This document shows, piece after piece, positions 1,321-62,758 of a stretch of DNA of 64,000 bases. The position numbers were made by a program, and so were the translations under genes. Positions within the stretch are counted from its first letter, which is position 1. The number at the start of each line of letters is the position of its first letter. The notes under the pieces are model-generated. The model saw nothing but the letters and a program-made list of their open reading frames with translations, had not been told where the DNA came from and did not search any database. The stretch spans positions 19,125-83,124 of IMG/VR virus record IMGVR_UViG_3300042502_001233. One strand, written 5' to 3'. Source of the stretch: a virus.

Positions 1321-2397
1321 TTATGACAACCCAACTTTTTCGTTTAATCTTTGGGAGAAAAACTTTTTAGAAATTTCAGAAACATATTTACCAATATCCT
1401 TTATTTCTAACCCTTCATCGCTAATAGTTTGAAGCTCTTCTTTTACTATGTCATTCATAACTGATTTTATATATTTACCAGTATCTTTAACATCGAAAGT
1501 ACCACCATTTAACGTGTCAAATGTTTCATTAAGCATTTGTTCAAGTCTCCAAGCTGGGGTGATTTTTTCAGCTAAGTCTATGCATTTTTGTACCCTCGCA
1601 TCATCAACTGGTTTGAGTGTTTTAACTTTTGAAACACCAGCGTGTTTCTCACCTTTAGATTTGAAAAAGATTCTAACACCATTTTCATCTAAATTTGAAA
1701 AAACAATCCCTTCACCTACAGTATTTGGAAAACCAAAGTGTTTAGCCACTGGACATTCGTCTTCAACACTTAAAGTCATTTCAATCATTTTGTTTTGACT
1801 AAGTTCAGGTCTATTAAAATCAATTTCAATTTCATATGTTTGAAAATCTAACATATTGTAAATTCTTTTTTCGTTATCCCTGAAACCTGAATAATCGACC
1901 CAATAAGCTGGGTTGTTTTTTAATTCTTCTTCATTTTCTACGATAGGTGAAATCTTTATACCATAGATAAACACCGATTTTTCAATATTGGTAATACCAA
2001 CACCTTTTTGAATATTAGAACCAGCCCACTCTGAATAAACACCAATTGTGTTATTATCCAAATCGATACCGTATTTATCAGCTATTTCGTTGATGATTCT
2101 CAACCAAGATTCTTTTGTTGATTCTGCAAAAAAAGCAAAACCAGCATTGTCGGATTGAGGGGTGATGATATTACCTCTACTCTGACACCACATACCTGAT
2201 TTGTTATTAAACAAAACACCAGCTGAAGTACCGTGTAGTTTAACAGTACCAATAAATTTAATAATTGGTTTTGGTTTAGATGGGTCGTAAATAGGCTCAC
2301 CATTTTCATCTAAACCACAGAAGTTATGTTTTCTGTTTACATCACTAACAACCTCTCTAAATTGAGGGGTTGATGGGTATTTTACCATTTTTTTCAT
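1321..2397 (-). CDS. RNA ligase 2 (Rnl2 family, T4 RnlB-like)
   Basis: Nucleotidyltransferase motif I KLHGTS matches the Rnl2 KIHGTN adenylylation lysine motif; length 358 aa. Confidence 0.85.
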   Translation of the reverse strand: MKKMVKYPSTPQFREVVSDVNRKHNFCGLDENGEPIYDPSKPKPIIKFIGTVKLHGTSAGVLFNNKSGMWCQSRGNIITPQSDNAGFAFFAESTKESWLRIINEIADKYGIDLDNNTIGVYSEWAGSNIQKGVGITNIEKSVFIYGIKISPIVENEEELKNNPAYWVDYSGFRDNEKRIYNMLDFQTYEIEIDFNRPELSQNKMIEMTLSVEDECPVAKHFGFPNTVGEGIVFSNLDENGVRIFFKSKGEKHAGVSKVKTLKPVDDARVQKCIDLAEKITPAWRLEQMLNETFDTLNGGTFDVKDTGKYIKSVMNDIVKEELQTISDEGLEIKDIGKYVSEISKKFFSQRLNEKVGLS

Positions 2398-6681: not shown

Positions 6682-7595
6682 TTTAATAAATTTATTTGTT
6701 CAACAATAAATAACTCCAACTCAATATCATTAAGCGATGATATATCCATTTCCCATAATGTGATAACTTTGTATTGATTTTTATATGCAATATCTATTTT
6801 TTTTTCATCTTTCTTCCATATAGTTTCAGCTAAGACATGTTTTTTTGGGAATGGTAATATATCACCAATCTTATATTTTCTTGGGTTAGCGTGCCAAAAA
6901 TCACCATTTACTTCAATAAGAATATTAGTATTGTTAATATAGTAATCAAATACTTTACCTTTTAACGTAAATTGTGGTTCAAATTTAAGTCCGATATCAA
7001 TCAAAATCTTACCAACTCTTTTTTCCAAAATAGAAGAACCGCCACTACATAGTCTTTTTATTTGATTTAGTTTTTGTTCTTCGGTATATGAATACCAACC
7101 ACTAATTCTTTTTACACCATATTTTTTTAACATTAATTCATTAACATTATCTTTAAATTCATCAAGTTTAAAGATATTATCAACACCATAATTTTTGATA
7201 AAAGTTTTTTGTTTTTTTTCTTTTATTGATTCGTTGTTTGAGACATTATCAACACCAAAACGTTTAAAACAAGTTGTTTTATATTTATTTCTAACTGATT
7301 TTTGATTACTTATTTCTTTTGATGATTTCAACTTAATATTATTTAATTTTAATAGTGAAGTTAAACTTTTATTAGGTATTTTATATTCTTTAACCAAACT
7401 AAAAACAGAACCGTCATTAATATATTTTTTAATAATTTCACCTATTAACACATCAGTTAAACCAAACCTTGTTTTTAAAACAAACAATTCTAGTTCAGTT
7501 TCATTTTTAAATTCACTATTGTGACTATTTTTAACGTGTAATTTAAACATTTTACTATCAAATTCACACTCACATTTTATACATTTAATCTTCAT
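6678..7595 (-). CDS. freestanding homing endonuclease, Vsr-like/EDxHD-type catalytic domain with N-terminal Zn finger and NUMOD-like repeats
   Basis: C-terminal NILIEVNGDFWHANP...K resembles the Vsr FVDGCFWHGH core. It lies between the two halves of the Rnl1 gene. Confidence 0.75.
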   Translation of the reverse strand: MKIKCIKCECEFDSKMFKLHVKNSHNSEFKNETELELFVLKTRFGLTDVLIGEIIKKYINDGSVFSLVKEYKIPNKSLTSLLKLNNIKLKSSKEISNQKSVRNKYKTTCFKRFGVDNVSNNESIKEKKQKTFIKNYGVDNIFKLDEFKDNVNELMLKKYGVKRISGWYSYTEEQKLNQIKRLCSGGSSILEKRVGKILIDIGLKFEPQFTLKGKVFDYYINNTNILIEVNGDFWHANPRKYKIGDILPFPKKHVLAETIWKKDEKKIDIAYKNQYKVITLWEMDISSLNDIELELFIVEQINLLK

Positions 7596-7652: not shown

Positions 7653-8255
7653 TTATTTAGTAATTAATAAAAATTCATCTTCTTCTGTTAATTCGCTGAC
7701 CATTCTATAACAATTTAGTTTAGGTAACCAAACTTTATGATTTCCAGTTAATTTAACGGTAGTCCCATCTTCTAATTCAATTTCAAACCAATCGTTAATA
7801 TTCTTCTTAACTGAATAATCAATAATCTCGTCATACATTGGTTCATTACTTTCTAAATCTAATGATAAAACTTTACCAGAATACTTAGTTTCACATATCT
7901 CACGAATCGTCATTTCACCATCTTCAGTTATAAGAACAGTGTCCTCATGACAGCAACCATCAAGTTTCTCTAACACATTGGCTGTGTTCCAATCTATTTT
8001 AGCAGCGTTTCCTTCTTCAGCGTTGAAGAATTTACGGAACGCCAACGACATAACTTTCCACGTACCTTTTTCAAGAATAAGACCACGACAATCTTGCATC
8101 TCTGGCAACCCCATAAGAGTTGGTGACGATAATTGGTCATATTTCAAAAGAATCTTGTTATCGTATTCTCTTGATTTAAGTTTAAAGTCATTTATAGCTT
8201 TATCTAGTCCATATTTTTTTATATATGTAACGATAGCTAATTCATTATTTTTCAT
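7653..8255 (-). CDS. RNA ligase 1 N-terminal part (motif I KLDG) fused to a split-intein N-segment (IntN, about 99 aa)
   Basis: LPEMQDCRGLILE...FRKFFNAEEGN...LEKLDG aligns to T4 Rnl1 LPDALECRGIMFE...MEKFFNLNENP...LTKEDG. It is followed directly by CCHEDTVLITEDGEMTIREI, which is intein block A. Confidence 0.8.
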   Translation of the reverse strand: MKNNELAIVTYIKKYGLDKAINDFKLKSREYDNKILLKYDQLSSPTLMGLPEMQDCRGLILEKGTWKVMSLAFRKFFNAEEGNAAKIDWNTANVLEKLDGCCHEDTVLITEDGEMTIREICETKYSGKVLSLDLESNEPMYDEIIDYSVKKNINDWFEIELEDGTTVKLTGNHKVWLPKLNCYRMVSELTEEDEFLLITK

Positions 8256-12183: not shown

Positions 12184-12199
12184 GGGGTCTTAGGACCCC
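12184..12199. terminator. bidirectional rho-independent terminator hairpin GGGGTC-TTAG-GACCCC flanked by A and T runs
   Basis: perfect 6-bp GC-rich stem seen in the sequence. Confidence 0.6.
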
Positions 12200-13128
12200 T
12201 TTTTTATTTCAGTTACTATACCTTTAATAGCAAAGTTTTTTATTTTTTGCCATTTGGTGATGTTGTTTGACATCACTGGTTTACCACCATCTGGATTTAT
12301 TGCAATCGTAATGTGTGGTATTGCATTGGCTGATGGATAACCTTCTACTTTGACCGCCATGGCCATATCGCTAAGACCTATGGCTTCAACATACAACGTT
12401 ACCTCTTTACCTAAGTCTTCTTTGTTTGGAACACCTTTACCGAATACAATTGTCATGTGGTGAGCAAATACTTTCCAACCTTCTGGGATATAATCATCAA
12501 GTCTAGATAACAACGCTGCTTTAGAACCATTATCCAATACAACAGCTGAATATAACACATCAGATTCTTTGTACATGTCTTTAGACTCCAAAACACTTTT
12601 CAATGTTAGCAATCCTTGACCTTTGTGAGATTCAATCAATGATTGAATTTTTTCCAATGGTACACCGTGAGTATTTCTCTCAGCAAGTATTTCCGCTGGT
12701 AACCCGTTGGTACCTATATCAACAAATTTTATGTTGTTATCAGACAAACCTAATTCTAACGCTGCTTTCACATACGCTTTGGATTCGTTTTGTTTGATGT
12801 TCGTGTTATCCACAATAACTGGTGATAATCCTTCTTTCAAAGATTTTATCGCATTTTTCAAGTTTGTTGAGTGCGCTCTTGACAATGGTGTGAAATCTTT
12901 CGACTCAAACATTGCTGCAAAGAATTTGTTGTAATCACCTTGTGACTCAATAACATCGTCTGTGGAGTGTATGATACCTTCACCTACTAGTTCTTTAGCT
13001 TTTGTGGATTTACCAGAACCTGGTATACCGCGCATAACTATCAGTTCTTGTGTTGGTCTTGTAACTACAACACCCAACGCATTTTTTTTCATGTCTTCTC
13101 TTAATATTGTTCTTATTTCTTTTTTCAT
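12190..13128 (-). CDS. bifunctional polynucleotide 5'-kinase / 2H-family cyclic phosphodiesterase
   Basis: N-terminal P-loop GIPGSGKST (T4 Pnk kinase-like); C-terminal twin HxT motifs HHMTI and HITI typical of the 2H phosphoesterase superfamily. Confidence 0.7.
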   Translation of the reverse strand: MKKEIRTILREDMKKNALGVVVTRPTQELIVMRGIPGSGKSTKAKELVGEGIIHSTDDVIESQGDYNKFFAAMFESKDFTPLSRAHSTNLKNAIKSLKEGLSPVIVDNTNIKQNESKAYVKAALELGLSDNNIKFVDIGTNGLPAEILAERNTHGVPLEKIQSLIESHKGQGLLTLKSVLESKDMYKESDVLYSAVVLDNGSKAALLSRLDDYIPEGWKVFAHHMTIVFGKGVPNKEDLGKEVTLYVEAIGLSDMAMAVKVEGYPSANAIPHITIAINPDGGKPVMSNNITKWQKIKNFAIKGIVTEIKKGS

Positions 13129-16396: not shown

Positions 16397-16666
16397 TTAT
16401 TTACGTTTTTCAACAAGATAGTTAATGTAATCTTCGTAGCCATCATCATCATCATCATCATCATCATAATCATCATCTTCTGGTTCAAAGTCTTCATCTA
16501 ACATTTTATCCAGAACTTCAAAAGCTATTTTCATTACTTCGTTTTCTTTACCCTTTAATTGTGGGTTAGGAAGCAAAATGAACAATCCAACTATGGCTTC
16601 TACCAATCCTTTTTCATTTTCACTATATTGTCTTTTCATAGTTGTGACGGTGGGGCTCGAACCCAC
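16397..16666 (-). CDS. small acidic protein inside the tRNA cluster (likely start MKRQY at about 16639)
   Basis: C-terminal DDDYDDDDDDDDGYEDY. Confidence 0.35.
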   Translation of the reverse strand: MGSSPTVTTMKRQYSENEKGLVEAIVGLFILLPNPQLKGKENEVMKIAFEVLDKMLDEDFEPEDDDYDDDDDDDDGYEDYINYLVEKRK

Positions 16667-16725
16667 ATTGTGTTATAAACACCCAGCGTATCAGGCTGGT
16701 GACTAAACCATTCATCCACATCACA
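16642..16725 (-). tRNA. tRNA-like gene with anticodon GAU but a 16-nt hairpin variable arm (non-canonical)
   Basis: Same anticodon loop CTGATAC as the canonical Ile tRNA next to it, plus an extra hairpin GTGTT-TAT-AACAC. Confidence 0.4.
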
Positions 16726-16806: not shown

Positions 16807-16814
16807 ATTATTTG

Positions 16815-16887
16815 CACGGACCAAGAGAATCGAACTCTTTCCATTCGAGGTTTTGGAGACCTGATGCATGCCATTATGCTGGCCCGT
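16815..16887 (-). tRNA. tRNA-Trp(CCA)
   Basis: Loop CTCCAAA; T-arm AAGAG/TTCGATT/CTCTT. Confidence 0.6.
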
Positions 16888-16989: not shown

Positions 16990-16997
16990 AATTTAGG

Positions 16998-17083
16998 GTG
17001 AAAAGACGGGACTCGAACCCGCAAGGACATTTCTGTCATCTGGCTCACAACCAGACTCGCTACCGTTACGTACTACAATCACC
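16998..17083 (-). pseudogene. tRNA-His-like (GUG) with extra variable hairpin and mismatched acceptor; probable pseudo-tRNA
   Basis: Loop TTGTGAG, hairpin GACA-GAAA-TGTC, three acceptor mismatches. Confidence 0.35.
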
Positions 17084-17092
17084 ATGTATTTC

Positions 17093-19114: not shown

Positions 19115-19166
19115 TATGTGCAAAGATACAAAAAGTTAAAATACTGTGCAAGTTTTTTTTAAAAAA
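19115..19166 (-). promoter_or_regulatory. class-1 promoter (TTGCAC-N17-TTGTATCTTTG on minus strand)
   Basis: Plus-strand tgtgcaaagatacaaaaagttaaaatactgtgcaagtttttttt. Confidence 0.4.
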
Positions 19167-20483: not shown

Positions 20484-21677
20484 TCAAGATAATCCTAATA
20501 ATTTTTTAAATTTATCAGTTTCCATTTTTTGAATGGCTTTTCCAAGTTCAGGTCCAGGACCTATATTGAATTTTTCCATCGCTTCTGGACCAGTAACTGT
20601 TAGTCTGAACTCTTCAAAAGCATCTAGCAATTGTGATGATATACCTTCGTTGCTACCAAAATTTCTAATTTGGTCGTTGGATACTCCAGAAGTTTGTTGT
20701 ACTTTCTTTAATAAGTAAGCAGTGTCAACATCTAACTTCAATAATGAAATTAAAAACACAATGGCTTTAATCTCATCCGATGAGTATTTTAAATCATTTA
20801 GTTTTTTTCTCAATACATCAACGTTGTTACCTTTTAACAACCTAGCTAACAATACTATGTAATCATCAGCTTTGTAATCAGAGTTTCTTCTAAATACTCT
20901 TGTGTCTACATCCAAATTAGGAAATATCCAATCAAACAATTTGTATTTGTCTAACATCAACAAGTAAGCGTCGGTTGATTTAGCTGATATAAGCCCTTTG
21001 ATAAATTCATCTCTAATACGTTCACCAGAAATACCTTCAAGACTAGCATCTTGTTGTAACGCAGCATCTACGTCAGGGTCCAACCCACTACCAAATCTAC
21101 CAGCCAGTCTTATACCTCTAAGTTTACGTAATTTATCTTCACTAAACCTGTCTTCTGATTTACCAACAGTGCGTATAACAGAATTTTTTAAATCAACGAT
21201 ACCACCTACTAAATCTACTACTTCTTGGGTGTCCATATCATAAAACAAAGCATTTACACTAAAATCTCTTCTTAAAACATCAGATTTTATATCTGAAAAT
21301 TCAACGTAATCTGGTCGTCTACCATCACTACTACCGATATCTTTACGCATAGTAGCTATCTCATATTCACCATCTGTAGTTATAACATTAACCACACCAA
21401 ACGCTTTACCTGTTTCCAATATATTTGTAACAAATTCTTGATTTTTTAATAAATTTATTACGTTATCTGGTGTGGCATTTGTTACTAAATCAAAATCTTT
21501 TGGTGTTACATTAAGTAACATATCACGAACTGACCCACCAATAGGGTATAATTCAAAACCATTTTTTTTAAAAATTGAATGAATTTTATTAACATTTGTC
21601 GGAAATTTAAAATAAATTTTTAATCTCTTCTCTGATGTTAAATTTTTTTTTAAAATTTCCTTTATAATTGTTTTCAT
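20484..21677 (-). CDS. tRNA nucleotidyltransferase (CCA-adding enzyme)
   Basis: Head-domain motif LYPIGGSVRDMLL...DFDL (GGxVRD / DxD). Confidence 0.8.
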   Translation of the reverse strand: MKTIIKEILKKNLTSEKRLKIYFKFPTNVNKIHSIFKKNGFELYPIGGSVRDMLLNVTPKDFDLVTNATPDNVINLLKNQEFVTNILETGKAFGVVNVITTDGEYEIATMRKDIGSSDGRRPDYVEFSDIKSDVLRRDFSVNALFYDMDTQEVVDLVGGIVDLKNSVIRTVGKSEDRFSEDKLRKLRGIRLAGRFGSGLDPDVDAALQQDASLEGISGERIRDEFIKGLISAKSTDAYLLMLDKYKLFDWIFPNLDVDTRVFRRNSDYKADDYIVLLARLLKGNNVDVLRKKLNDLKYSSDEIKAIVFLISLLKLDVDTAYLLKKVQQTSGVSNDQIRNFGSNEGISSQLLDAFEEFRLTVTGPEAMEKFNIGPGPELGKAIQKMETDKFKKLLGLS

Positions 21678-24815: not shown

Positions 24816-25166
24816 TTAAGCATATTGAACCTCCTTTCCCATTAACGGACATGAGCTCGTTAATTTTTTGGCAGCATCGGTTGGCTCAAAAGCAACAGCC
24901 GTTATTTCGTTACCCAAGTCAGGTTCACGGAAAATTGTGTGTTTGATACCCATAAAGATAGCTTTGGTAATCAATTTGATTAGCGCTTCTTCATCAGCGA
25001 CAGTTAATAATGCTAAATAGTTTGATTTTGTTTGCCATTCGGTAGCTTCAACAGGGTGTTGATATTGGAAATCTACCAAGGCATGAGCTGATTGAACAGC
25101 TTGTTGTGAAGGTGTTAAGTCACGTCTTGTGACAACTCTTAATTTTTGATTGTTAATCTAAGTCAT
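24816..25166 (-). CDS. PTH2-family peptidyl-tRNA hydrolase with an in-frame TAG at codon 3
   Basis: Translation M-T-(TAG)-INNQKLRVVTRRDLTPSQQAVQSAHALVDF...LLTVADEEALIKL...ITAVAFEP matches PTH2 (VVRTDL...AAQ.SHA / VVLKA.DEE.L..L / TVLAIGP). The ORF track shows only the part after the TAG. Confidence 0.6.
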
Positions 25167-25226
25167 AATTTCTAATTTTTTGTTTATTATAAATATACCA
25201 CACTTTTAAAAAATGTAAAGTGTTTG

Positions 25227-25299
25227 TAGTTCTAATCGGACTCGAACCGATATCTCTCCGTTTTAGAGGCGGGTGTATTCACGTTAATACTATAGAACC
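25227..25299 (-). tRNA. candidate amber-suppressor tRNA, anticodon CUA
   Basis: The 73-nt hand fold fits canonical numbering. Acceptor is GGTTCTA/TAGAACT, D-stem GTAT/ATAC, anticodon loop CTCTAAA (34-36 = CUA), and T-arm ATCGG/TTCGAGT/CCGAT. The anticodon stem has C.A mismatches at both ends. Confidence 0.45.
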
Positions 25300-32735: not shown

Positions 32736-33062
32736 TTATGATAGAAGTTCGATTCTTCCTCTGGATATATCTTTAAGACTTGCAGTCTTGTTGGTTATGT
32801 GGTCAACTACCACCCCATCCTTGACTCTGTACGTTCTTCGTTTGTCGCTTCTGTCACCTTTACCGATTTGTTCACGTCTCTCGTCAACGCTTTCTTGTAT
32901 GTGACCAGTTCTGTAATATTCGTTCACACGCTTTTTAAGCTCTTTTAAGGCATCTTCTTTGTTCTGGTGTTGATTCCTTCCATCTCGAACTACTTTGAGC
33001 CCTGTGGCCGCGTGTGTGACTACTACACATGAATCTGTGGTATTTTTGTGCTGACCACCAAA
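32736..33062 (-). pseudogene. release-factor fragment (GGQ domain + C-terminal domain) lacking a start; paralog of 36084..36767
   Basis: The in-frame translation FGGQHKNTTDSCVVVTHAATGLKV...NQHQNKEDAL...RTYRVKDGVVVDHITNKTASL begins immediately after the TAA of the upstream ORF. Confidence 0.5.
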
Positions 33063-36083: not shown

Positions 36084-36767
36084 TTATGAAAGAAGCTCTA
36101 TTTTACCTCTTAATATGTCTTTTAGACTAGCAGTCTTATTAGTGATATGGTCTACAACCATATCATCCTTTACACGATAAGTCCTTCTTTTATCGGCACG
36201 ACCACCTTCACCAATTTGTTCATTACGGTTTTCAATGGTTAATGAATCATGACCTGTTTTATAAAAGTTATTAACCCTTTGAGTTAATTCAGCAATCGCT
36301 GCTTCTTTATTTTGGTGTTGACTTCGACTATCACGTCTAACTTTAATCCCAGTTGCTATATGAGTTACAACAACACATGATTCAGTTTTATTCCTTTTTT
36401 GCCCACCGTTCCCAGTTCCTCTGGTTGTTTCCAAACGATATTCACTAGGATGTAATTCTACTTCCTTATAATCGTTTTCTTCCATAAGTGCTACGGTGAT
36501 TGAACTTGTATGAACCCTACCTTTTCTTTCGGTTGGTGGTACTCTTTGCCACCTATGTGAACCTACATGGTTTAAGAACACATTTTTAACATTATATCCA
36601 GATATTCAGATAGTTATCATACCATCTTTCTCATCAATAACTTTAGCTTCAAATGAATAATTTTTGCAAGCTTTTAAAAAAATATCTCGCATATCTTTAA
36701 TTAATAATTTTGAATCATCACCGCCTTCTGACGCTCTTAATTCTAATAAAATTTTATTTGTTTTCAT
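36084..36767 (-). CDS. truncated class-I release factor (RF1-like PxT motif PPT, GGQ, no domain 1) with one in-frame TGA
   Basis: MKTNKILLELRASEGGDDSKLLIKDMRDIF...DGMITI-TGA-ISGYNVKNVFLNHVGSHRWQRVPPTERKGRVHTSS...RGTGNGGQKRNKTES...SQHQNKEAA...RTYRVKDDMVVDHITNKTASL. It is collinear with RF1 domains 2-4. Confidence 0.6.
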
Positions 36768-37545: not shown

Positions 37546-37934
37546 AATATTCTTTTATAATAAATATCACAAATAATTAAAAAAACCACAAATGGCAAAG
37601 AATTCCATTCGTTCTTAAAGATTTCTTTTGCGTTTTTACCCGTTAGTCAGATGCTAACAAATCCTAACCTATCTTCGGTTATTATTCAGTCGATGTTATT
37701 GTTCTTCGCTGTTTTAATGTAAATGTCGCGCATTTCACAAACCAACAGCTTCGCATCGGTTCCACCTTCTGCGTCTCGGATTTCTAAATTAATTTTTCCC
37801 ATTGGTTTTGTTTTTTGTTGTTTGTTATTAGTTTTAATAAAAAACCCCATATTGCTATGGGGTTTAGTATTTTACAGAATAGTTTTTGTTTTTTTTTCCT
37901 TAAAAATTTCAATTGCTGAATCTATTCTTCTAGT

Positions 37935-38020
37935 TGCGGAAGTAGGACTCGAACCTACAACACAGTGTTACTGCTCCTCTAGGTTATGAGCCTAGCATGT
38001 TTCCATTTCCACCATTCCGC
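37935..38020 (-). tRNA. tRNA-like gene, anticodon CAU, with a 20-nt hairpin variable arm (non-canonical)
   Basis: Anticodon stem CTAGG/CCTAG, loop CTCATAA, extra hairpin CAGT-AAC-ACTG. Confidence 0.4.
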
Positions 38021-38028
38021 GATGTATT

Positions 38029-38688
38029 TTATTTTCTACCCTTAACCCAACCTTCGTTCAGATAAGTTTCAAGGTTTTCTTTTTTTATCTTTTTGTTAGC
38101 ACCGTCTCTGGTTATCCAACACGTACCGTATTGACTATTTGTTTCACCAATACCAGTACCTTTTCTTTTTTCAGAGATTAAACGTTTAGATTCTTCAGCA
38201 TGATTTTTACCAGTCCAATCTAGATTTTTTAATTTATTCTGTCTGTATTCTTCATTTTCCCAAGCTATTTTATTAACATGAGAATTGAATCTACTTAACC
38301 AGTTTTCATCACCACCGAACTTTTCTTTTAAAACTTCGTCAGTTTTTTTTCTACCAGCTTTAACACATTTAAACATATGTTCTTCATTGATAAAACCACC
38401 ACCTTCACCACCAAGAGCCAAATTCATACATTTGGAATCTGAAATTAATTCTTTATTAACAATTTCTTTTTCTCTTTTAGCTAATTCTTCTCTATTTTCT
38501 AAAAATTCTAGAATCTCTTTTGTGTGATTTTCTTTACCGTATTTTCTAATAGAACGTCTTAATGTTTTACCACTACCTATATAACCATCTTCTAAGTTAT
38601 ACGTGCTATGCATTCCGATGTACCATCGTCCTGTTATATTACACGTTGTTTTATAAATGTAGTGTATGTTTTTTTCTTTTCTTGCCAT
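38029..38688 (-). CDS. GIY-YIG homing endonuclease (paralog of 17093..17725)
   Basis: IHYIYKTTCNITGRWYIGMHS...GYIGSG. Confidence 0.8.
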   Translation of the reverse strand: MARKEKNIHYIYKTTCNITGRWYIGMHSTYNLEDGYIGSGKTLRRSIRKYGKENHTKEILEFLENREELAKREKEIVNKELISDSKCMNLALGGEGGGFINEEHMFKCVKAGRKKTDEVLKEKFGGDENWLSRFNSHVNKIAWENEEYRQNKLKNLDWTGKNHAEESKRLISEKRKGTGIGETNSQYGTCWITRDGANKKIKKENLETYLNEGWVKGRK

Positions 38689-39522: not shown

Positions 39523-39724
39523 ATTAATAATTTATTTTTATTGATATTTATATTTGTTATAACACTTTAAATAATTCTACAAAATCATGAAAAACAAAGG
39601 ATGCGGTTGCAAACCACCTAAAAGATAATCAAATTATCTTAAAAAATTAAACCCCACGTAAAGCGATTTACAGTGGGGTTTTTATTTCTCACTCATTGGT
39701 TTATTTTGAGCAGAATCATTACTG

Positions 39725-40103
39725 ATGGTGGAGTTATGGGGAATCGAACCCCAGTGTTGCATATTCTTCAAAAGCTTTCTACATGTTTATCTAGTTTCTA
39801 ATTCTAGCAAAGTTGTGCTGCGTTATTTATCCCGATGGAAGTGCAGCGACCATCGTTCCTTTTTTTACAACTAGGAAGTTGGTTCTTGGTGATTTATCAC
39901 CATCAAGTGGAATTACCACTATTAGCTATAATTAGGCTACAGCTACCTCTCCTGCGAAACTGAATGCAGCTTCGTTAAGGAAATTTTCAGAAACGATGAA
40001 ATCGTTGTCAATTCAATTTTTTAATAGACAGATTAAAGTGCTTCCAATCTAGCACTACATGCTTACGATTTACGACTATATCCAGTCAATACCGTTTAAC
40101 CCC
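39725..40103 (-). ncRNA. ssrA: tmRNA-like RNA (ssrA candidate), about 379 nt
   Basis: The 5' end GGGGTTAAACGGTATTGACTGG pairs with the 3' end (GGGGTTA / TAACTCC, one G.U). The 3' end has T-arm TGGGG-TTCGATT-CCCCA, acceptor strand and an encoded CCA. There is an internal candidate tag ORF ...GCAGGAGAGGTAGCTGTAGCCTAA (AGEVAVA*). A class-1 promoter lies about 50 nt upstream. Confidence 0.5.
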
Positions 40104-40147
40104 AATAATTTAAAGAACTTATGTATATAAATATACGTATTTTTTAT

Positions 40148-40200
40148 TTTTTACAAATATACTACATATTTTATCAAAATGCAAGTTTATTTTAAAATAT
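40148..40200 (-). promoter_or_regulatory. class-1 promoter upstream of the tmRNA-like gene
   Basis: ttacaaatatactacatattttatcaaaatgcaagtttatttt. Confidence 0.45.
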
Positions 40201-40201
40201 T

Positions 40202-40513
40202 TTATTTTTCTTTTTCTTGAAACGAAGATGGTAATATGTACTTGTTAAGTTTTAAATACTTGGTAAGTATAAAGAATATCGTACCACCAGGCAACAATGC
40301 AATACCAACCAACCCCGTAGTCTTCAACACATCTTTCAGTTGCTCACCAACCTTGTTCTTTTCCTCTTGAGTCAATTTTTTACCTTCTTTGACCGAGTCA
40401 ACAATCAACATGAAAGCCTCTTTGGTTTCGAGGCTTTCTTGTTCAGTGTTTTTTATAAAGTCTTTGGCGTTAACCTTAAGTTCTTTATAATATTTTTGAA
40501 TGGTTGAAAACAT
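40202..40513 (-). CDS. small membrane-anchored protein
   Basis: C-terminal TM helix GLVGIALLPGGTIFFIL. Confidence 0.4.
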   Translation of the reverse strand: MFSTIQKYYKELKVNAKDFIKNTEQESLETKEAFMLIVDSVKEGKKLTQEEKNKVGEQLKDVLKTTGLVGIALLPGGTIFFILTKYLKLNKYILPSSFQEKEK

Positions 40514-41232
40514 TATTTCTTTCTGTTTATGATTATATCATCAACAATACCGTAAGCTTTAGCTTCTTCTGCATTTAACCATAAATCTCTGTCAGCATCT
40601 ATTTTAACTTGTGCTGGGTCTTTGTCAGTATATTGACCTAACAAACCAAACAAAAGTTCGTTGTATTTCCTAGCTTCTGCCAATGAGATTTCAATGTCTT
40701 GAATAGTACCTTGTGCACCACTTGATACTTGGTGTAACATTACTCGACTGAAATTCAATGTAAATCTCTTGCCTTTGGTTCCAGCACCCAAAAGGATACT
40801 ACCCATACTAGCAGCCATACCAGTGTTGATTGTGATGATATCGGACTTAACGTAGTTCATAATGTCTACGATTGACAAACCTGATTTAACGGAACCACCT
40901 GGACTGTCTACGTGCAAGGTGATGTCTTTCAATTCTAAATTGTCCAAGAACAATAACTGTGCTTGTACTACAGTGCTCATTCTATCGTTAACTGGACCAG
41001 CCAACCAAATGATTCTATCCATCATCATTCTGGAAAAGATATCCATTTGAGTTACCCTCAATTCTCTTTCTTCAAGGATATATGGTGTCAAAGATGCTGA
41101 CGGACCAGTTGTAATCAAAGGAGCTTGCGCACCATAGATTTTTTCTTGAAGTTGTTCCCAATTGTGGAAATCTATCCCAGATATCCCCATATGCTTAATA
41201 GCATAGTCTTTAAATTCTTGCGTGTAATTCAT
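40513..41232 (-). CDS. clpP: ATP-dependent Clp protease proteolytic subunit
   Basis: Ser-His-Asp region GMAASMGS...MLHQ; ClpP-length 239 aa. Confidence 0.9.
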   Translation of the reverse strand: MNYTQEFKDYAIKHMGISGIDFHNWEQLQEKIYGAQAPLITTGPSASLTPYILEERELRVTQMDIFSRMMMDRIIWLAGPVNDRMSTVVQAQLLFLDNLELKDITLHVDSPGGSVKSGLSIVDIMNYVKSDIITINTGMAASMGSILLGAGTKGKRFTLNFSRVMLHQVSSGAQGTIQDIEISLAEARKYNELLFGLLGQYTDKDPAQVKIDADRDLWLNAEEAKAYGIVDDIIINRKK

Positions 41233-41249: not shown

Positions 41250-41672
41250 TTATTCTGTTTCTTCTATAAACAAATGCAACGGTGTGTAATCTCCAACAAA
41301 TGCTCCAGCCACATTATAACCGAAATACTCCAAAGCCATCATATAAGCAGCGTCATCTCGTGTCATACCATCTTCAACATCGTCGTCAGATACTTCCATG
41401 TCGTTCATTAATATTTTAATCGCTTTTTCAACATCGTAAGCTACTAGACCTTCAAAACTTGGTCTATCCCAATTATCTATTGAGTCAAATTCATCATATT
41501 CTTCAAAACCCTCATAAAAGTTTGGGTCTAATTTAATATTTACAATACCGTTAGAATTATAGATAACTAGGGGACCAAAATCTTCTTTTTTGGCCAAACC
41601 TATGATTGCCTCATCTAAACCATCCCACACAATAGCGTTTGGACTTAATAAAGCTATTTCATCCCTAGTCAT
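41250..41672 (-). CDS. acidic hypothetical protein
   Basis: 140 aa. Confidence 0.4.
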   Translation of the reverse strand: MTRDEIALLSPNAIVWDGLDEAIIGLAKKEDFGPLVIYNSNGIVNIKLDPNFYEGFEEYDEFDSIDNWDRPSFEGLVAYDVEKAIKILMNDMEVSDDDVEDGMTRDDAAYMMALEYFGYNVAGAFVGDYTPLHLFIEETE

Positions 41673-42138: not shown

Positions 42139-42180
42139 TTTACAAATATACTAATATTATCCTTTATTTGCAAGTTTTTC
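42139..42180 (-). promoter_or_regulatory. class-1 promoter
   Basis: tacaaatatactaatattatcctttatttgcaagttttt. Confidence 0.45.
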
Positions 42181-43176
42181 TTTAAGATTTATCACAGCTT
42201 CTTTAGCTTCATCATCCAAAACTTTAGGTATTTCAATACCTAACGTAACTATAAGGTCACCTCTACCATCTTTACCGTATACACTAACACCTTTAAACGG
42301 AACTCTAAGGTTAGTACCAACGTCGCTATACTCTGGAACACTCATTCTTATTTTGTTACCTTCAATTGTGTCTATTTCTACTTTGTCACCCAAAACCAAT
42401 TGTGGATAAGATAGTTTAAGATTCATCTTTAAATCAGGACCTATTCTAGTAAAGACTTTATGTGGTAACTCAATAATTTTTATGTGTAAATCACCATTGT
42501 TTCCTGATTTAACACCTTGACCTTTACCCTCCATTACAAATGTCATCCCATTTTGAATACCAGCTGGAACTGTAACTTGTACAGTTTCTTTTATGTTTGT
42601 TAACCCACTACCACTACATGTGTTACAAGGAGTTCTATGTTTGGTCCCAGTAGCGTCACATGAAGGGCAAGGTTGTGTTGTTTGAAAAACACCCATTGGA
42701 GTTCTGGTAAGACTTGTTACCATACCGCTACCATTACAAGATGGACAATCATATGGGTCAGTACCACCGTGACCTTCGCAGTCTGTACAACTAACATTTC
42801 TGTTGTAGTTATAGGTTTTATTCACCCCAGAGAATATTTCTTCAAGGGTTAATTTAACAGTTAAGCTAAGAGTTTCACCAACCCTAACTTGTTTATGACC
42901 TTGGTTGAAATGACGACCAAAGATATCATGAAAACCTCTAAACATATCATCTGGGTTGCCTCTGTTATCTGAATTGTGTCCAAATCTGTCATATTTTGCT
43001 TTTTTATCATCATCGGACAAAACTTCATAAGCTTCAGACACTTCTTTGAACTTATCTTCATCACCACCCTTATCTGGGTGTAACTCTTTGGCTAGCTTTC
43101 TATAAGCTTTCTTGATTTCATCTTGTGAAGCGCCTTTGGCTAACCCTAAAACCTCATAATAATCTCTTTTACTCAT
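42157..43176 (-). CDS. dnaJ: DnaJ (Hsp40) co-chaperone
   Basis: J-domain with HPD ([10 protein letters not shown]), four CxxCxGxG zinc-finger repeats. Confidence 0.9.
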
Positions 43177-45574: not shown

Positions 45575-47011
45575 TTAAACAGTTACGCAAGCGTAACGTT
45601 CTGAGCCGATAACAGACATCATCATTGAGTATGGTGTCATCTCTTTACCCGCTAGCAAGCTAGTCAATAAAGATGGTGAGAAACCACTCACTAAAGCAGT
45701 ACCGTTTTTATCAAACTGAACTGGTTTGTTGTTATCACCTCTTGACTGAATGTTCCAGTATACAACTTTAGGCATAGCATAACCAGCTTGAGAGTATTTG
45801 GCTTCAATCATTTGTTGTGCAGTTGGGTTCCAACTTCCACCACCAGCGTAGTTGAATTCCATATCCGAAAGGATAAGAATCATTGTTGGCATTTCTTCTT
45901 GAGAAACTTTAGAAGCTCTCGCTTTGTCAAGTATCAAGTTGAACACCGCTTCGATGTTGGTAGACATTGCCCACTCAGCACGTCTCAATTGGTTGTATCT
46001 CTCACTAAGAGAACCTTTCAAGATTTGAAGCGAAGGACGACTTGAGAAAGTCACAAACGCATCTTGGAAAGGACCAACGTTTCTTTCTGAAATGTATAAC
46101 CCCAAAGAGATTGCTACATCCATACAAGTTACACTAGCGCTACCACCAGCTGAACAAGACATTGAACCTGACACGTCAACAACTGGCAAGAATTTCTCGT
46201 TGTTGTTTTCCATGTAGTTAGGTAGTGCACCCCATTGTGCGTTAGCACCTTTAGTGTTACCTTGGTTCAAGCTTTTGATAATGTCGTATGGGTATACGGC
46301 ACCAGCGTTTATTTTTGTTTCACCTTTTTCAACAGAGTTAAGGTATTCTTGGAAACGAACCAAGTCATTTTTAGAGAACGCTTTCATGTAGTCACTCATT
46401 GCTTTTGAAGGCAATTTAGAATACTCAATTTTAGAGAATTCTTTAGCACACATCAATTGCTCAACGGTGTTAGAGTTTTCTACTAACATTTTACGGTAGT
46501 CTTTTGGTGACATACCCATGTGTTTTCTCAAAGCTGTCGCCCATCTTTTTTTCTCACGATTACCTACGTTTGGACGTGGCATCCATTTAGCGCAAAGACC
46601 ATTTTTATTAGCCAACGCACTAGCGATTAACTCCAAAGCATCTTTTTCCAAAGGTGTACCTACCAATACAAGTAAGTCATCCCATCTACCGAACTCGGCA
46701 ATCAAGTGTAAATTTTTACGCAAAGCGTCTGTACGGTTAGCCGCAAGATACTCTATGATATCTCTGAAGATTTTTCTTTCTCCAGCTCCACCACGAACGT
46801 CACGTGCCCAGAACAACAAACGCATTGCTGTTAATGAGTTCTCACCAAATGCTTTCGTGAATACATTGATAAGACGTTGTTTATCTTGCCCTCTCATAGC
46901 ACCAATCTGGAAGAATAAATCCACACATAGGTTTAATGATGAAGAGTTAGTAGACATACCGTTTTCAGTCAATGAATCTTTAGTTTGCATAGCATTTAAT
47001 AATGTACTCAT
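45575..47011 (-). CDS. vWA-domain protein with TROVE/Ro60-like or DUF2828-like N-terminal region
   Basis: MIDAS-like VVDVSGSMSC; N-terminal LLFWARDVRGGAGERKIFRD; the likely start is MSTLLNAMQ at 47011, not 47050. Confidence 0.45.
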   Translation of the reverse strand: MSTLLNAMQTKDSLTENGMSTNSSSLNLCVDLFFQIGAMRGQDKQRLINVFTKAFGENSLTAMRLLFWARDVRGGAGERKIFRDIIEYLAANRTDALRKNLHLIAEFGRWDDLLVLVGTPLEKDALELIASALANKNGLCAKWMPRPNVGNREKKRWATALRKHMGMSPKDYRKMLVENSNTVEQLMCAKEFSKIEYSKLPSKAMSDYMKAFSKNDLVRFQEYLNSVEKGETKINAGAVYPYDIIKSLNQGNTKGANAQWGALPNYMENNNEKFLPVVDVSGSMSCSAGGSASVTCMDVAISLGLYISERNVGPFQDAFVTFSSRPSLQILKGSLSERYNQLRRAEWAMSTNIEAVFNLILDKARASKVSQEEMPTMILILSDMEFNYAGGGSWNPTAQQMIEAKYSQAGYAMPKVVYWNIQSRGDNNKPVQFDKNGTALVSGFSPSLLTSLLAGKEMTPYSMMMSVIGSERYACVTV

Positions 47012-47042
47012 AATAATAAAATTTTTGATTGTTAATTTTTGA

Positions 47043-47090
47043 TAATGCAAAGATACTACTTTTTATATATGCTTGTCAAGTTTTTTTTCG
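47043..47090 (-). promoter_or_regulatory. class-1 promoter (TTGACA-N17-TAGTATCTTTG)
   Basis: atgcaaagatactactttttatatatgcttgtcaagtttttttt. Confidence 0.5.
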
Positions 47091-60451: not shown

Positions 60452-62758
60452 TTAATTAAACGTTATTTTAGAAATATTATTTTCTTTAACTACAGTAACC
60501 ACGTTTGTTGACCAATCTTTAACGATATCGTTGTGTGTGATAAAGAAGACGATATCATACATGTCTTTTACTTTATCAAACAACAATTTTAGTTTTTCAA
60601 GATTCTCTGGAGCCACTTTACCCAACACTTCATCAAACGTGATGAAATTAGGCATAGGTAGTGTAGATAGTTTCCCTAACACAGCTCTTAAAGCTAGACT
60701 GGCAGCAGTTTTTTCTAACCCAGACCCAGATTTTAACAATTTAGAAACACCATCTTTAACTAATAAAAACTGAACATCGTTCTTATCATTAATAAATATC
60801 TCGATTTCAAAATCTACAACATCTTCTAATAATCTTTGAACTTCTGAATTGATAATTGGGAGAACTGAGCGCAATACCAATTTACTAATACCTTTCTTAC
60901 CAACCAATTCAATGTATATCTTGAATATTTTATCAACTTCCTCTTCTTTTTTTATAGTTTCAATAAGTTTTGTTTTTATACCAATATGTTCCGCGTTGAT
61001 TCTTAATTCACTTTGAACTCGTTCGAGACTTCTGATTGTTTCGTCTTTTTTATATTCTTTAACTGAAATATCTGTAATAATTTTACTAACAGCTATTTCT
61101 ACACTACGATTTAACTCTATCGCTTCTAAGTTTAATTTGTATTTTTTCAAATCATTCTTTTTAGCAACAATTTGGTTTCTTAATCCACCCATTTCAACTT
61201 CTAATCTGTCTATATCCAATTCCTTTTTACCAATTGAGTCAGCAATTTTTTTGGTTTCATTTAAACCTTCAAGTTCTTCAACACTTTTTAAAAGTTTATC
61301 AGTAAGTTCTTTTACTTCTTTGTTTATTTTTTCAATCTCAACCTCATGTTTAGCTATATGTGCTGAATTATCAACATCATCTAATTTTCTGTTACATGAT
61401 TGACAAATACCACCAGCAATTAAATCGGATACAACTTTTTTAAGTCTTTTTGATTCGGCTTCTTTAACTGCTTTATCCATATTTAATTTACTACCTAATT
61501 TTGTCAACTCATGATGTCTATCTTCATCAAATTCAATTTTACCTATCTCTTCGATTTCACTTTTTATAGTTGTTACTTTACCACTTAACTCAACACCTTT
61601 ATCAATGAGTGTTTTAATGTCATCTTCAAGTCTTTGGGGGTTTAATTCTGAAATTGTTACGTCAATTTTCTCTTTGCTGTTTAAAAGAGCATCTTTTTCA
61701 GTTTTTAACTCTTCCAAAGATTGTTTAGTAGTTTCTAAAGTTTCGTTTAAATCACTTTCTAGTTCATTATAGTTCACAATTTTTTCATTGTGGTCATCAA
61801 TCTCTTGACCCAAAGTTATAACGTCGTATTCGTTAGATTTCTTCTTTTTAGAAAATTCATTGTACATCGTTCTAGCGATTGCTTCTTTCATTTCAAGAAC
61901 TTCTAAACCAATAAGTCTAGTAAGTATCTTACCAGATTCAGTTGTTGTCAATCCAATCAATTCATCCAAGTTTTTTTCAGTAGCCAAAACCAACATTTCA
62001 AAATCTTTTTCGGTTCCGATGCTTTCTTTTAACTTTTTAGTTGTTTGTTTGGCATCTTCTTCATTTAATTCCTCTTCTTCACCATCTGGTTGAATTTTAT
62101 AGTAGTTTACTTTGTTTACAACAGTCCAACCACCACCTTTTTTAGAAGTACGTCTCATTTTTCTTTCAATGATAGTCTCTTCACCTTCAATTTCAATCAT
62201 TCCACGAACAACCAACTCATTCTTTTCAGAGTATGTGTTGAATATTTGCTCGTTGGTATCTGTTTTGGTTGTACTACCATGAAGCAAAAACTTAATAGCG
62301 TCGATTGTAAGCGTTGTATTATGTGATACGATTCCATTGGTATAATATTGATGGACTTCGGCTACTTGAATATCGTATAATGTATCTTTTTCTTTTAATA
62401 ATTCAATAGTAGCAACAGCACTATCACCATCGTTTGTTTGAATCATCTCACCAACTTTTATCTCTTTAAGGACAACAAACTCATCATCCGTTTTCTTTAA
62501 ACGATGATAATCAGCACCTTCAACAAACATTCCGTTTTGAAGTTCACATCTATAAACATCAGCATTTTCTTCTGTAATTCCACACCACTCAATGTCTTTA
62601 TAACCATATGGTGTATCAACTTTAAATCCTAGGTCTCCGTATTTTTGGTAAATATTATTTAATTCACCAATTGTAATTTCTTTATTCTCCATCTTTTTTA
62701 TATAAATTAATTTCTTCAATTTCAAATTCAATACCACGAAGTTTATCTTTAGATTCAA
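60452..62758 (-). CDS. SbcC/Rad50-like recombination ATPase (T4 gp46-like) preceded in-frame by an intein C-segment (blocks B, F, G; about 125-147 aa)
   Basis: N-terminal VYRCELQNGMFVEGADYHRL (block B-like) ... DTLYDIQVAEVHQYYTNGIVSHN|TTLTIDAIKFLLHG, where the extein starts at the [ST]T of the P-loop. The C-terminus has the signature motif, Walker B FITFDEV and H-loop FFITHN. Confidence 0.7.
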   Translation of the reverse strand: MNLKINFVVLNLKLKKLIYIKKMENKEITIGELNNIYQKYGDLGFKVDTPYGYKDIEWCGITEENADVYRCELQNGMFVEGADYHRLKKTDDEFVVLKEIKVGEMIQTNDGDSAVATIELLKEKDTLYDIQVAEVHQYYTNGIVSHNTTLTIDAIKFLLHGSTTKTDTNEQIFNTYSEKNELVVRGMIEIEGEETIIERKMRRTSKKGGGWTVVNKVNYYKIQPDGEEEELNEEDAKQTTKKLKESIGTEKDFEMLVLATEKNLDELIGLTTTESGKILTRLIGLEVLEMKEAIARTMYNEFSKKKKSNEYDVITLGQEIDDHNEKIVNYNELESDLNETLETTKQSLEELKTEKDALLNSKEKIDVTISELNPQRLEDDIKTLIDKGVELSGKVTTIKSEIEEIGKIEFDEDRHHELTKLGSKLNMDKAVKEAESKRLKKVVSDLIAGGICQSCNRKLDDVDNSAHIAKHEVEIEKINKEVKELTDKLLKSVEELEGLNETKKIADSIGKKELDIDRLEVEMGGLRNQIVAKKNDLKKYKLNLEAIELNRSVEIAVSKIITDISVKEYKKDETIRSLERVQSELRINAEHIGIKTKLIETIKKEEEVDKIFKIYIELVGKKGISKLVLRSVLPIINSEVQRLLEDVVDFEIEIFINDKNDVQFLLVKDGVSKLLKSGSGLEKTAASLALRAVLGKLSTLPMPNFITFDEVLGKVAPENLEKLKLLFDKVKDMYDIVFFITHNDIVKDWSTNVVTVVKENNISKITFN

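Follow-up and report, generated by a model that had tools for sequence, protein, structure and literature searches.

A one-piece tmRNA gene with a long conserved tag beside clpP in a large phage that probably infects Bacteroidota

The stretch of viral DNA analysed here, called the window throughout, comprises 64,000 nucleotides (nt) of IMG/VR record IMGVR_UViG_3300042502_001233 (positions 19,125 to 83,124 of that record). Its minus strand carries a full-length one-piece transfer-messenger RNA (tmRNA, ssrA) gene of a large phage with a probable Bacteroidota host. The gene is likely to be functional and is predicted to act in ribosome rescue and protein tagging. The RNA displays the architecture of a tmRNA, its helices are under selection, its tag is under selection as a peptide, and it forms an independent transcription unit beside a gene for the protease ClpP. 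All coordinates given below are positions of the window.

The RNA starts with GGGGTTAAACGGTATTGACTGG at position 40103 and ends with CTGGGGTTCGATTCCCCATAACTCCACCA at position 39726. The mature one-piece molecule (39726..40103, minus strand) is 378 nt long including an encoded CCA. Both ends, the pairing of GGGGTTA with TAACTCC through one G.U, the T-arm and the encoded CCA had already been pointed out in a first-pass annotation made from the letters alone, and all were found on the sequence as described; its estimate of about 370 nt between the ends was close to the measured length. The Infernal search with the Rfam tmRNA model RF00023, which it had proposed as a check, gave a significant full-length match: 63.1 bits (gathering threshold 47) over model positions 1-374 of 374, with an E-value of 2.8e-22 when the whole window was searched and of 3e-24 on the region. 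Posterior probability in the alignment to the model was high at both tRNA-like ends, in the part of helix P2 with GCAUG/CAUGU and around pseudoknot 1 (PK1) and the resume codon, and low in the central part of the RNA. The minimum free energy (MFE) was -106.3 kcal/mol versus -80.9 +/- 5.5 for shuffled sequences (z = -4.6). A permuted two-piece tmRNA was ruled out, since the gene order is that of a standard one-piece RNA and the permuted model (RF04321 and relatives) gave a partial match of 27.6 bits, below its gathering threshold of 47 and due to the shared T-arm. No riboswitch was detected in the Rfam scan. ARAGORN, the other proposed check, reported no tmRNA on the window or on the region. 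In tmRNA mode the same program called 11 of 19 homologues at identical ends, with the same tag frame in five of them, and its miss of the window copy is therefore attributed to insufficient sensitivity. The RF00023 score of the window copy is moderate; three further members of the group scored 80.9, 58.9 and 48.5 bits.

Relatives were gathered by searching IMG/VR viral contigs with the ClpP of the window, which yielded 57 loci. In each of the 25 loci with a ClpP at least 69 % identical, a homologous RNA followed ClpP on the same strand, 100-2500 nt further down. Together they represent 19 distinct RNA sequences, in addition to one mis-binned contig of 170 kb. The 19 sequences served for covariation analysis; a gap misplaced by MAFFT at the 5' end was handled by setting the register by anchoring, and 2000 column shuffles as well as slid pairing registers were used as controls.

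The acceptor stem (P1) pairs GGGGUUA (40097..40103, minus strand, with G3 at 40101) with UAACUCC, which together with the discriminator A (39729) occupies 39729..39736; its single G.U lies at 3:70, the U70 equivalent being position 39732. In the family, 98.5 % of P1 cells were paired and three of seven pairs were changed on both sides. Pairs G1-C, G2-C, G3.U70 and G4-C were invariant in all 19 sequences; pairs 5-7 occurred as U-A, A-U, C-G and G-C forms, with several compensatory types each. G3.U70 is the identity pair for alanine. The T-arm (UGGGG UUCGAUU CCCCA; 39737..39753, minus strand) has a 5-bp stem that was paired in 100 % of cells and displayed compensatory changes at four of five pairs. 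Helix P2a (5' strand 40078..40084, partner 39758-39764, minus strand) was 94 % paired, with both-sided changes at five of seven pairs; slid registers reached 29-63 %. For the variable pairs of P1, T-stem and P2a, the observed pairing was attained by none of the 2000 column shuffles; slid registers were 29-66 % paired and registers shifted by one 35-62 %. Helix P2d (GCAUGU at 40057..40062, partner ACAUGU at 39781-39786, minus strand) was invariant in 19/19, with none of its six pairs changed on both sides; it was 99 % paired versus 0-66 % in slid registers and received high posteriors from the covariance model. The encoded CCA (39726..39728, minus strand) is peculiar to the window copy: it is absent from the other 18 homologues, including the near-identical locus L001, whose ClpP is 100 % identical.

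PK1 (40030..40056, minus strand) would be composed of stem 1, AGUGCU/AGCACU, and a candidate stem 2, AGAUU/AAUCU. Stem 1 was 97 % paired, with compensatory changes at two of six pairs. Stem 2 can form in the window copy; family-wide it was 74-78 % paired, with none of its five pairs covarying, which is no better than column shuffles. In place of PK2-PK4, sequence inspection and MFE folds indicated a central domain (39791..39920, minus strand) that would comprise a pair of hairpins, two candidate pseudoknots of the H type and one further hairpin at its end. The candidate pseudoknots, CAACU/AGUUG with UUCC/GGAA and CGAUGG/CCAUCG with GCUGC/GCAGC, were read from the window copy. This domain was too divergent for a family alignment, and the window copy and L001 share an insertion of about 24 nt in it.

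The tag frame (39932..40009, minus strand) runs from the resume codon GAC (40007-40009), defined as the codon aligned to the resume codon of RF00023, through 25 codons encoding DNDFIVSENFLNEAAFSFAGEVAVA to the stop codon TAA (39932-39934), and its end reads GTA GCT GTA GCC TAA (...AGEVAVA*). The interior open reading frame (ORF) with this ending had been put forward as a candidate tag, and the frame proved to be conserved at the peptide level in the homologues. It was open in all of them and encoded (D/G)N(D/T)(F/L)(I/V)VSENFL(N/D)E...AGE(L/V)AVA, and the other two frames were full of stops across the family. Seventeen sequences had a frame of 25 codons and the remaining two one of 26, through an exact 3-nt indel; the resume codon was always GAC or GGC and no start codon was present. 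Variable columns numbered 9, 11 and 19 at codon positions 1, 2 and 3, respectively. The ratio of synonymous to nonsynonymous codon differences was 601:728 in the tag frame versus 173:1225 and 217:1193 in the other two. Hairpin H5 (39923..39945, minus strand) presents the stop codon in its loop, and a local hairpin with the stop codon so placed was found in 19/19 homologues. The third pair of H5 covaries (A-U, U-A or G-C) along with synonymous changes of an alanine codon. On these comparative grounds, frame conservation and H5 together are read as the signature of a translated tmRNA tag.

That the region could instead be a tRNA gene with a large intron, or a decaying pseudogene, is a highly improbable reading, for which the homing endonucleases, inteins and over-long tRNA genes of the window might speak. 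However, tRNA prediction called neither D-arm nor anticodon arm at the region and no intron family matched there, in agreement with the first-pass annotation, which had noted no tRNA 5' half within 80 nt of the T-arm. Moreover, a PK1 region, an open tag frame that is conserved, and H5 lie in the interior, and the compensatory evolution and peptide-level constraint seen in 19 sequences are incompatible with decay.

Upstream of the RNA lies a promoter-like element, TTGCATTTTGATAAAATATGTAGTATATTTG (40154..40184, minus strand), of a -33 TTG / -7 TAnnTTTG type that recurs in the window. The copy of the tmRNA gene reads TTG-N19-GTATATTTG and is situated 51 nt upstream of G1. The motif TTG-N17-21-TAnnTTTG was found 25 times on the coding (minus) strand, versus 5.5 +/- 2.1 times in shuffles; it mostly takes the form TTG-N19-(A/T)GTAT(A/C)TTTG and is usually located just upstream of ORF starts. 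What had been called a class-1 promoter is thus a genuinely recurrent motif with a copy at the tmRNA gene, and 15 of the 19 homologues kept the element ahead of the RNA. It presumably corresponds to the -33/-7 promoter of Bacteroidota sigma-A, which it resembles.

Between promoter and G1, an upstream alignment of the 19 homologues delimited a precursor leader of about 50 nt (40104..40153, minus strand). It contains a conserved 14-nt motif, GTTCTTTAAATTAT, at 40105-40118, abutting G1, and a conserved TATTTAT about 20 nt further upstream; the 14-nt motif, as GTTCTTTAAnTTAT, was kept at the equivalent position in 18 relatives. It is not a repeated element of the window (6 matches versus 5 expected). 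A pairing of the leader sequence GTTCTTTAA with tmRNA positions 332-340 was likewise discarded: the best duplex sites differed between members and were mostly no better than those of shuffled leaders. Downstream of the RNA, folding revealed a strong intrinsic terminator (39641..39678, minus strand; -18.7 kcal/mol) composed of the hairpin CCCCACUGUAAAUCGCUUUACGUGGGG and a U-run. The hairpin was kept in eight homologues; the others displayed a T-run directly after the acceptor arm.

The tmRNA gene belongs to a block of genes. Directly upstream of it, as in every homologous locus, a gene encodes a ClpP protease of 239 amino acids (aa) (40513..41232, minus strand; Pfam CLP_protease, 1.5e-57). This ClpP is of the cellular type, matching the NCBIfam ClpP model at 238 bits over its full length versus 65 bits for the head-maturation protease model, and its Ser, His and Asp motifs are intact by comparison with solved ClpPs. 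It is preceded by p140 (41250-41672), by a phage metallopeptidase (41672-42106) and by DnaJ (42157-43176), the latter two on the minus strand and identified with Pfam and NCBIfam. A 491-aa DUF2828/DUF7788 protein (45575-47050, minus strand), with a full-length match to PHROG 850 ('RNA-binding protein') at 521 bits, borders the DnaJ-ClpP-tmRNA block on its upstream side in most relatives. As to p140, a role as SmpB-like or SspB-like partner was considered and dropped: it had no Pfam, NCBIfam or PDB-sequence match and fell in a PHROG family of unknown function only. The order DUF7788-DnaJ-metallopeptidase-p140-ClpP-tmRNA-(homing endonuclease)-p69-RF1-like was kept in 20 loci, and viral contigs with homologues, up to 142 kb in length, displayed the same synteny. 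The first-pass view of a tmRNA-like gene in a phage context is thus upheld by the RF00023 score, the covariation in 19 homologues, the conservation of the tag and this gene context.

One of the 20 loci, L088, is a contig of 170,662 bp (PLXT01000115.1) deposited in a metagenome-assembled genome (MAG) of 'Methanobacterium sp.'. It gave a full-length match to the family profile (235 bits) and displayed the DnaJ-metallopeptidase-ClpP-tmRNA order, a G+C content of 34 % and the tag DNDLIVSENFLDEAVLTVGAGELAFA. On account of its synteny, G+C content and family-type tag, it is almost certainly a member of that group mis-binned in an archaeal MAG.

Beyond this group the RNA was not recovered. ClpP loci at 50-61 % identity displayed no tmRNA within +/-6 kb, whether searched with the family nhmmer profile or with Rfam, nor was one present near the ClpP of LR745206.1, a 635 kb uncultured phage that is the best GenBank relative of the window ClpP (56 % identity). 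Searches of the RNA and its surrounding 20 kb against GenBank phages with blastn and megablast found no relative; one tRNA matched two phages of about 635 kb. The exact 27-mer of the RNA 3' end was absent from viral contigs because the CCA is encoded only by the window copy. Two of the contigs with distant ClpPs carry GOLLD RNA (L030, 9220-9650; L034, 9032-9466; 241-243 bits) beside arrays of about 20 tRNA genes, and L034 also carries a freshwater-1 RNA (7261-7323); these RNAs indicate freshwater phages.

The window has a G+C content of about 31 %, is 88 % coding with nearly all genes on one strand, and its gene content is that of the non-structural region of a large phage. Shine-Dalgarno-like motifs were found upstream of only 3 of 62 genes and upstream regions are A-rich. 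Translation starts that are poor in Shine-Dalgarno motifs and rich in A are typical of Bacteroidota. The carrier is probably a large phage infecting members of this phylum.

A relation to Bacteroidota was also apparent in the RNA. A total of 185,579 species genomes were scanned for the 3' motif CATGTAGAAAGCTTnTGA-N12-24-GGTTCRA, a pattern drawn from the phage sequence. The scan returned at least 120 loci, and nearly all of the matches listed were from Bacteroidota, including Bacteroides, Chitinophagaceae, Paludibacteraceae, Prevotellaceae and Saprospiraceae. The tags among the matches listed were nine residues long (GNTQYAMAA at least 49 times, GETNYALAA at least 20 and GENNYALAA at least eight), and none resembled the phage tag. 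Compared with the more than 100 bacterial tmRNAs listed, the phage profile matched over the last ~65 nt only, at 33-49 bits. There is some indication here that the RNA descends from a Bacteroidota-type tmRNA and forms an old phage-specific lineage.

These comparisons also bear on the idea that the gene is host ssrA or an attP-type fragment at the edge of an integrated element, either in bacterial DNA or through recent capture. Host derivation had been raised in the first-pass annotation. The gene ssrA is a frequent integration site (PMC9004378), and the 3' 65 nt of the RNA do resemble Bacteroidota tmRNAs. However, the gene is full length, the genes on both flanks are of phage type, lie on one strand and share composition and promoter class, and scans with Pfam and further profiles found no integrase domain among the window ORFs. 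Homologues occur in the same synteny on the viral contigs mentioned above, the bacterial tmRNAs listed share the 3' end alone and no similar tag, and the sole full-length match among the genomes listed was the mis-binned phage contig L088. An origin of this kind is most unlikely. Judged by the motif scan and the profile comparison, the RNA is neither a recent copy of host ssrA nor an attachment-site fragment.

Several observations weigh against a functional rescue tmRNA. No SmpB (PF01668) was found by Pfam among the window ORFs or in the flanks of relatives (+/-6 kb); tblastn with E. coli SmpB gave a marginal match only, inside a helicase domain, and a protein search with the same query returned enterobacterial sequences only and did not reach SmpB of phages or Bacteroidota. 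ClpX and ClpA were likewise not found in the 64 kb window or within +/-6 kb in relatives. With 2.5 times the length of the tags of Bacteroidota and a final VA where those have AA, the tag may not be recognised by the usual proteases. The window copy reaches a moderate Rfam score, and one relative, at 48.5 bits, barely passes the threshold; PK1 stem 2 and the PK2-PK4 domain are devoid of covariation support. Finally, the link to ClpP is one of synteny only, and distant ClpP relatives as well as LR745206.1 are devoid of a nearby tmRNA.

Despite these points, a functional rescue tmRNA is the reading retained, and the following course of events is proposed for it. The RNA would be transcribed as its own unit from the common phage promoter class of the window and end at its own terminator. 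The leader of about 50 nt would then be removed, presumably by RNase P at G1, and relatives that lack an encoded CCA would receive one from a CCA-adding enzyme such as that encoded in the window. Host alanyl-tRNA synthetase would charge the RNA with alanine through the invariant G3.U70. The tmRNA partners, SmpB and an unfoldase, are assumed to be those of the host because neither SmpB nor ClpX/ClpA was found in the window or in the flanks of relatives. Entry into stalled ribosomes would thus take place with SmpB that is probably the host's, also since the SmpB-binding tRNA-like/P2 module still resembles that of Bacteroidota tmRNAs. Translation would resume at GAC and append A-DNDFIVSENFLNEAAFSFAGEVAVA, and UAA in the H5 loop would release the ribosome. 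The non-polar ...(L/V)AVA end is most likely a degradation signal, and the adjacent phage ClpP, its active site being intact, would together with a host unfoldase be a plausible recipient of the tagged proteins. The net effect would be that ribosomes stay free and incomplete proteins are cleared while infection proceeds, with the gene as one member of a conserved phage block that would maintain proteostasis and translation.

The same RNA might be a real tmRNA whose main role lies beyond canonical quality control. It would then compete with host tmRNA for SmpB and ribosomes and add a phage-specific tag, which could escape host adaptors and proteases or be routed to the phage ClpP, for example in countering translation-stalling defences. 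Such a role appears unlikely overall, even if the long tag of 25-26 residues shows strong conservation and does not resemble the nine-residue tags of Bacteroidota, and the linkage to phage ClpP, DnaJ and metallopeptidase is strict. The window also holds genes of the tRNA repair type (RNA ligase, kinase/CPDase-like protein, CCA enzyme) together with many tRNAs, and a phage tmRNA reduced to the tRNA-like domain (TLD) has been proposed to titrate SmpB (PMC4131195). On the other hand, the RNA retains every canonical feature of a functioning tmRNA, and its tag has the kind of non-polar end that degradation tags typically have. The sequence gives no sign of selectivity for the phage ClpP, and Pfam and other profile scans of the window identified no adaptor or unfoldase gene. 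A more specific scheme, in which a 26-residue tag added by the phage tmRNA is read preferentially by ClpP together with the DnaJ and metallopeptidase inherited alongside it, or is shielded from host adaptors, is likewise regarded as doubtful. If true, it would render ribosome recycling and the disposal of aborted proteins independent of the host, or competitive with it, and would possibly counter host defences that arrest translation.

The gene represents a well-supported, previously unannotated tmRNA lineage from uncultivated large phages that probably infect Bacteroidota. Standard annotation under-detects such tmRNAs: ARAGORN missed 8 of 19 and Rfam scores were near threshold in some. With peptide and protease both defined, the strict linkage of a long conserved tag to a phage block of ClpP, DnaJ and metallopeptidase brings a hypothesis of protein tagging and disposal under phage control within direct experimental reach.

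The first-pass annotation had placed the tmRNA in a 'rescue toolkit' with a PTH2, a PrfH-like release factor, the CCA enzyme and a large tRNA set. The CCA-adding enzyme (20484-21677, from domain and profile matches) and 16 tRNA genes are indeed present; PTH2 was confirmed by no hidden Markov model library, and the PrfH-like factor is better described as one of the RF1 type. The ORF that was probably meant as PTH2 (24816-25079, minus strand, 87 aa) had no Pfam, NCBIfam or PDB-sequence match and gave weak PHROG matches only (an unknown family at 4e-7; 'hydrolase' at 2e-4). The supposed PrfH scored 156 bits with RF1 versus 65 with PrfH, and is an RF1-type factor encoded in one frame of 227 codons (36084-36767, minus strand), with domains 2-4, the PPT tripeptide and GGQ, and without domain 1.

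This RF1-type gene contains a single in-frame TGA (36606-36608). Orthologues from eight loci (L001, L009, L010, L013, L014, L016, L017 and L088; six distinct sequences) displayed one or two in-frame TGAs at conserved positions, never TAA or TAG, in the contexts AAC TGA A/C and ATC TGA A/C. None of the other coding-strand genes of the window needs TGA read-through, and genome-wide TGA recoding was dismissed, since the RF1-like gene alone requires it. These features suggest programmed UGA read-through specific to this gene, which would recall the autoregulation of prfB except that no frameshift is involved. In the fold of a tRNA-Trp(CCA) (16814-16887, minus strand), the anticodon stem has only 4 bp (AGGU/ACCU) and is flanked by C x C. 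Such tRNA-Trp variants are reported to read UGA in other organisms (PMC13092985), and there may be a connection between the tRNA found here and the UGAs within the RF1-like frame. The pair may be the more surprising lead of the window. The last ~55 residues of the RF1-like protein recur in a 63-aa ORF (32736-32927, minus strand; NCBIfam RF1 positions 278-332), which is probably a gene fragment left by rearrangement.

Other gene products recognised in the window by domain and profile matches were a sigma-70 family factor, an amidase and a GH19 lysin; DNA ligases and RNA ligases, a deoxynucleoside monophosphate (dNMP) kinase and RNase HII; and an ArdC-like anti-restriction protein and an SbcC-like protein. 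Several homing endonucleases and intein fragments were present as well. An intein-splicing domain was matched in a 200-aa ORF (7653-8255, minus strand) and, weakly, at the N-terminus of the 768-aa SbcC-like protein (60452-62758, minus strand), and several homing-endonuclease ORFs were of GIY-YIG, HNH and Endo VII types; together they point to a heavy invasion of the window by selfish elements. A kinase (AAA_33) with a tRNA-ligase CPDase-like part (12190-13128, minus strand) and an RNA ligase (1321-2397, minus strand) suggest, beside the CCA enzyme and the tRNAs, a capacity for tRNA repair. Three minus-strand tRNA genes are over-long, namely tRNA-His (89 nt, 16996-17084), tRNA-Met (89 nt, 37933-38021) and tRNA-Ile (85 nt, 16641-16725), and may contain introns or be variant tRNAs; that for Met adjoins a homing-endonuclease gene (38029-38688). 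A tRNA with anticodon CTA (25226-25299, minus strand), labelled 'Pyl' by ARAGORN and amber-suppressor-like, has its own TAnnTTTG promoter box and was also found in 10 related loci. The 83 ORF stops of the window were TAA (74), TAG (5) and TGA (4), and no sign of in-frame TAG was seen in the window genes.

As compared with one-piece tmRNAs of Bacteroidota, the window RNA displays the same acceptor stem with G3.U70, the T-arm and a long P2 with the GCAUG/CAUGU element, followed by a putative PK1, an A-rich single strand, a start-less ORF and a stop codon in the H5 loop, within a length of about 355-378 nt. It also shares the CATGTAGAAAGCTTnTGA...GGTTCRA motif, which was almost exclusive to Bacteroidota among the matches listed. 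In contrast, it is phage-encoded, its tag has 25-26 codons instead of nine and ends with (L/V)AVA instead of (L/M)AA, with resume codon GAC or GGC, and its central pseudoknot domain is divergent; nhmmer aligned the RNA to the bacterial genes over the last ~65 nt only.

Phage tmRNAs are known from eight cluster C mycobacteriophages, from Bacillus phage G and, in a TLD-only form, from DS6A (PMC4131195), as well as from huge phages, some of which also encode SmpB (PMC7162821). Phage G encodes ClpP and ClpX and its tag, AKLNITNNELQVA, is not host-like (PMC12484599). Melnitz, a myophage of Pelagibacter/OM43, carries a two-piece tmRNA (PMC9004378). Neither a clade-wide linkage of tmRNA to ClpP, DnaJ and metallopeptidase nor a conserved tag 2.5 times as long as that of the presumed hosts is described in the literature on phage tmRNAs examined (PMC4131195, PMC7162821, PMC9004378, PMC12484599); both are considered modestly new. 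Like the cluster C mycobacteriophages (Bxz1 group), phage G and the huge phages of Al-Shayeb et al. 2020, the phage of the window combines a complete ssrA with many tRNAs and translation factors in a large genome. Its RNA differs from theirs in the absence of sequence similarity to any deposited phage record, and the window also differs from those huge phages that encode SmpB, as none was found in it. With Melnitz it shares a phage ssrA behind an early-type promoter, for which a role in maintaining hijacked translation or in degrading proteins was proposed (PMC9004378). The tmRNA of Melnitz is, however, permuted, two-piece and under a glutamine riboswitch, whereas that of the window is one-piece with no riboswitch detected. 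The TLD-only tmRNA of DS6A is likewise a phage-borne derivative of ssrA (PMC4131195). It comprises little beyond the tRNA-like domain and is thought to be inhibitory, whereas the gene of the window keeps its whole mRNA-like domain under selection.

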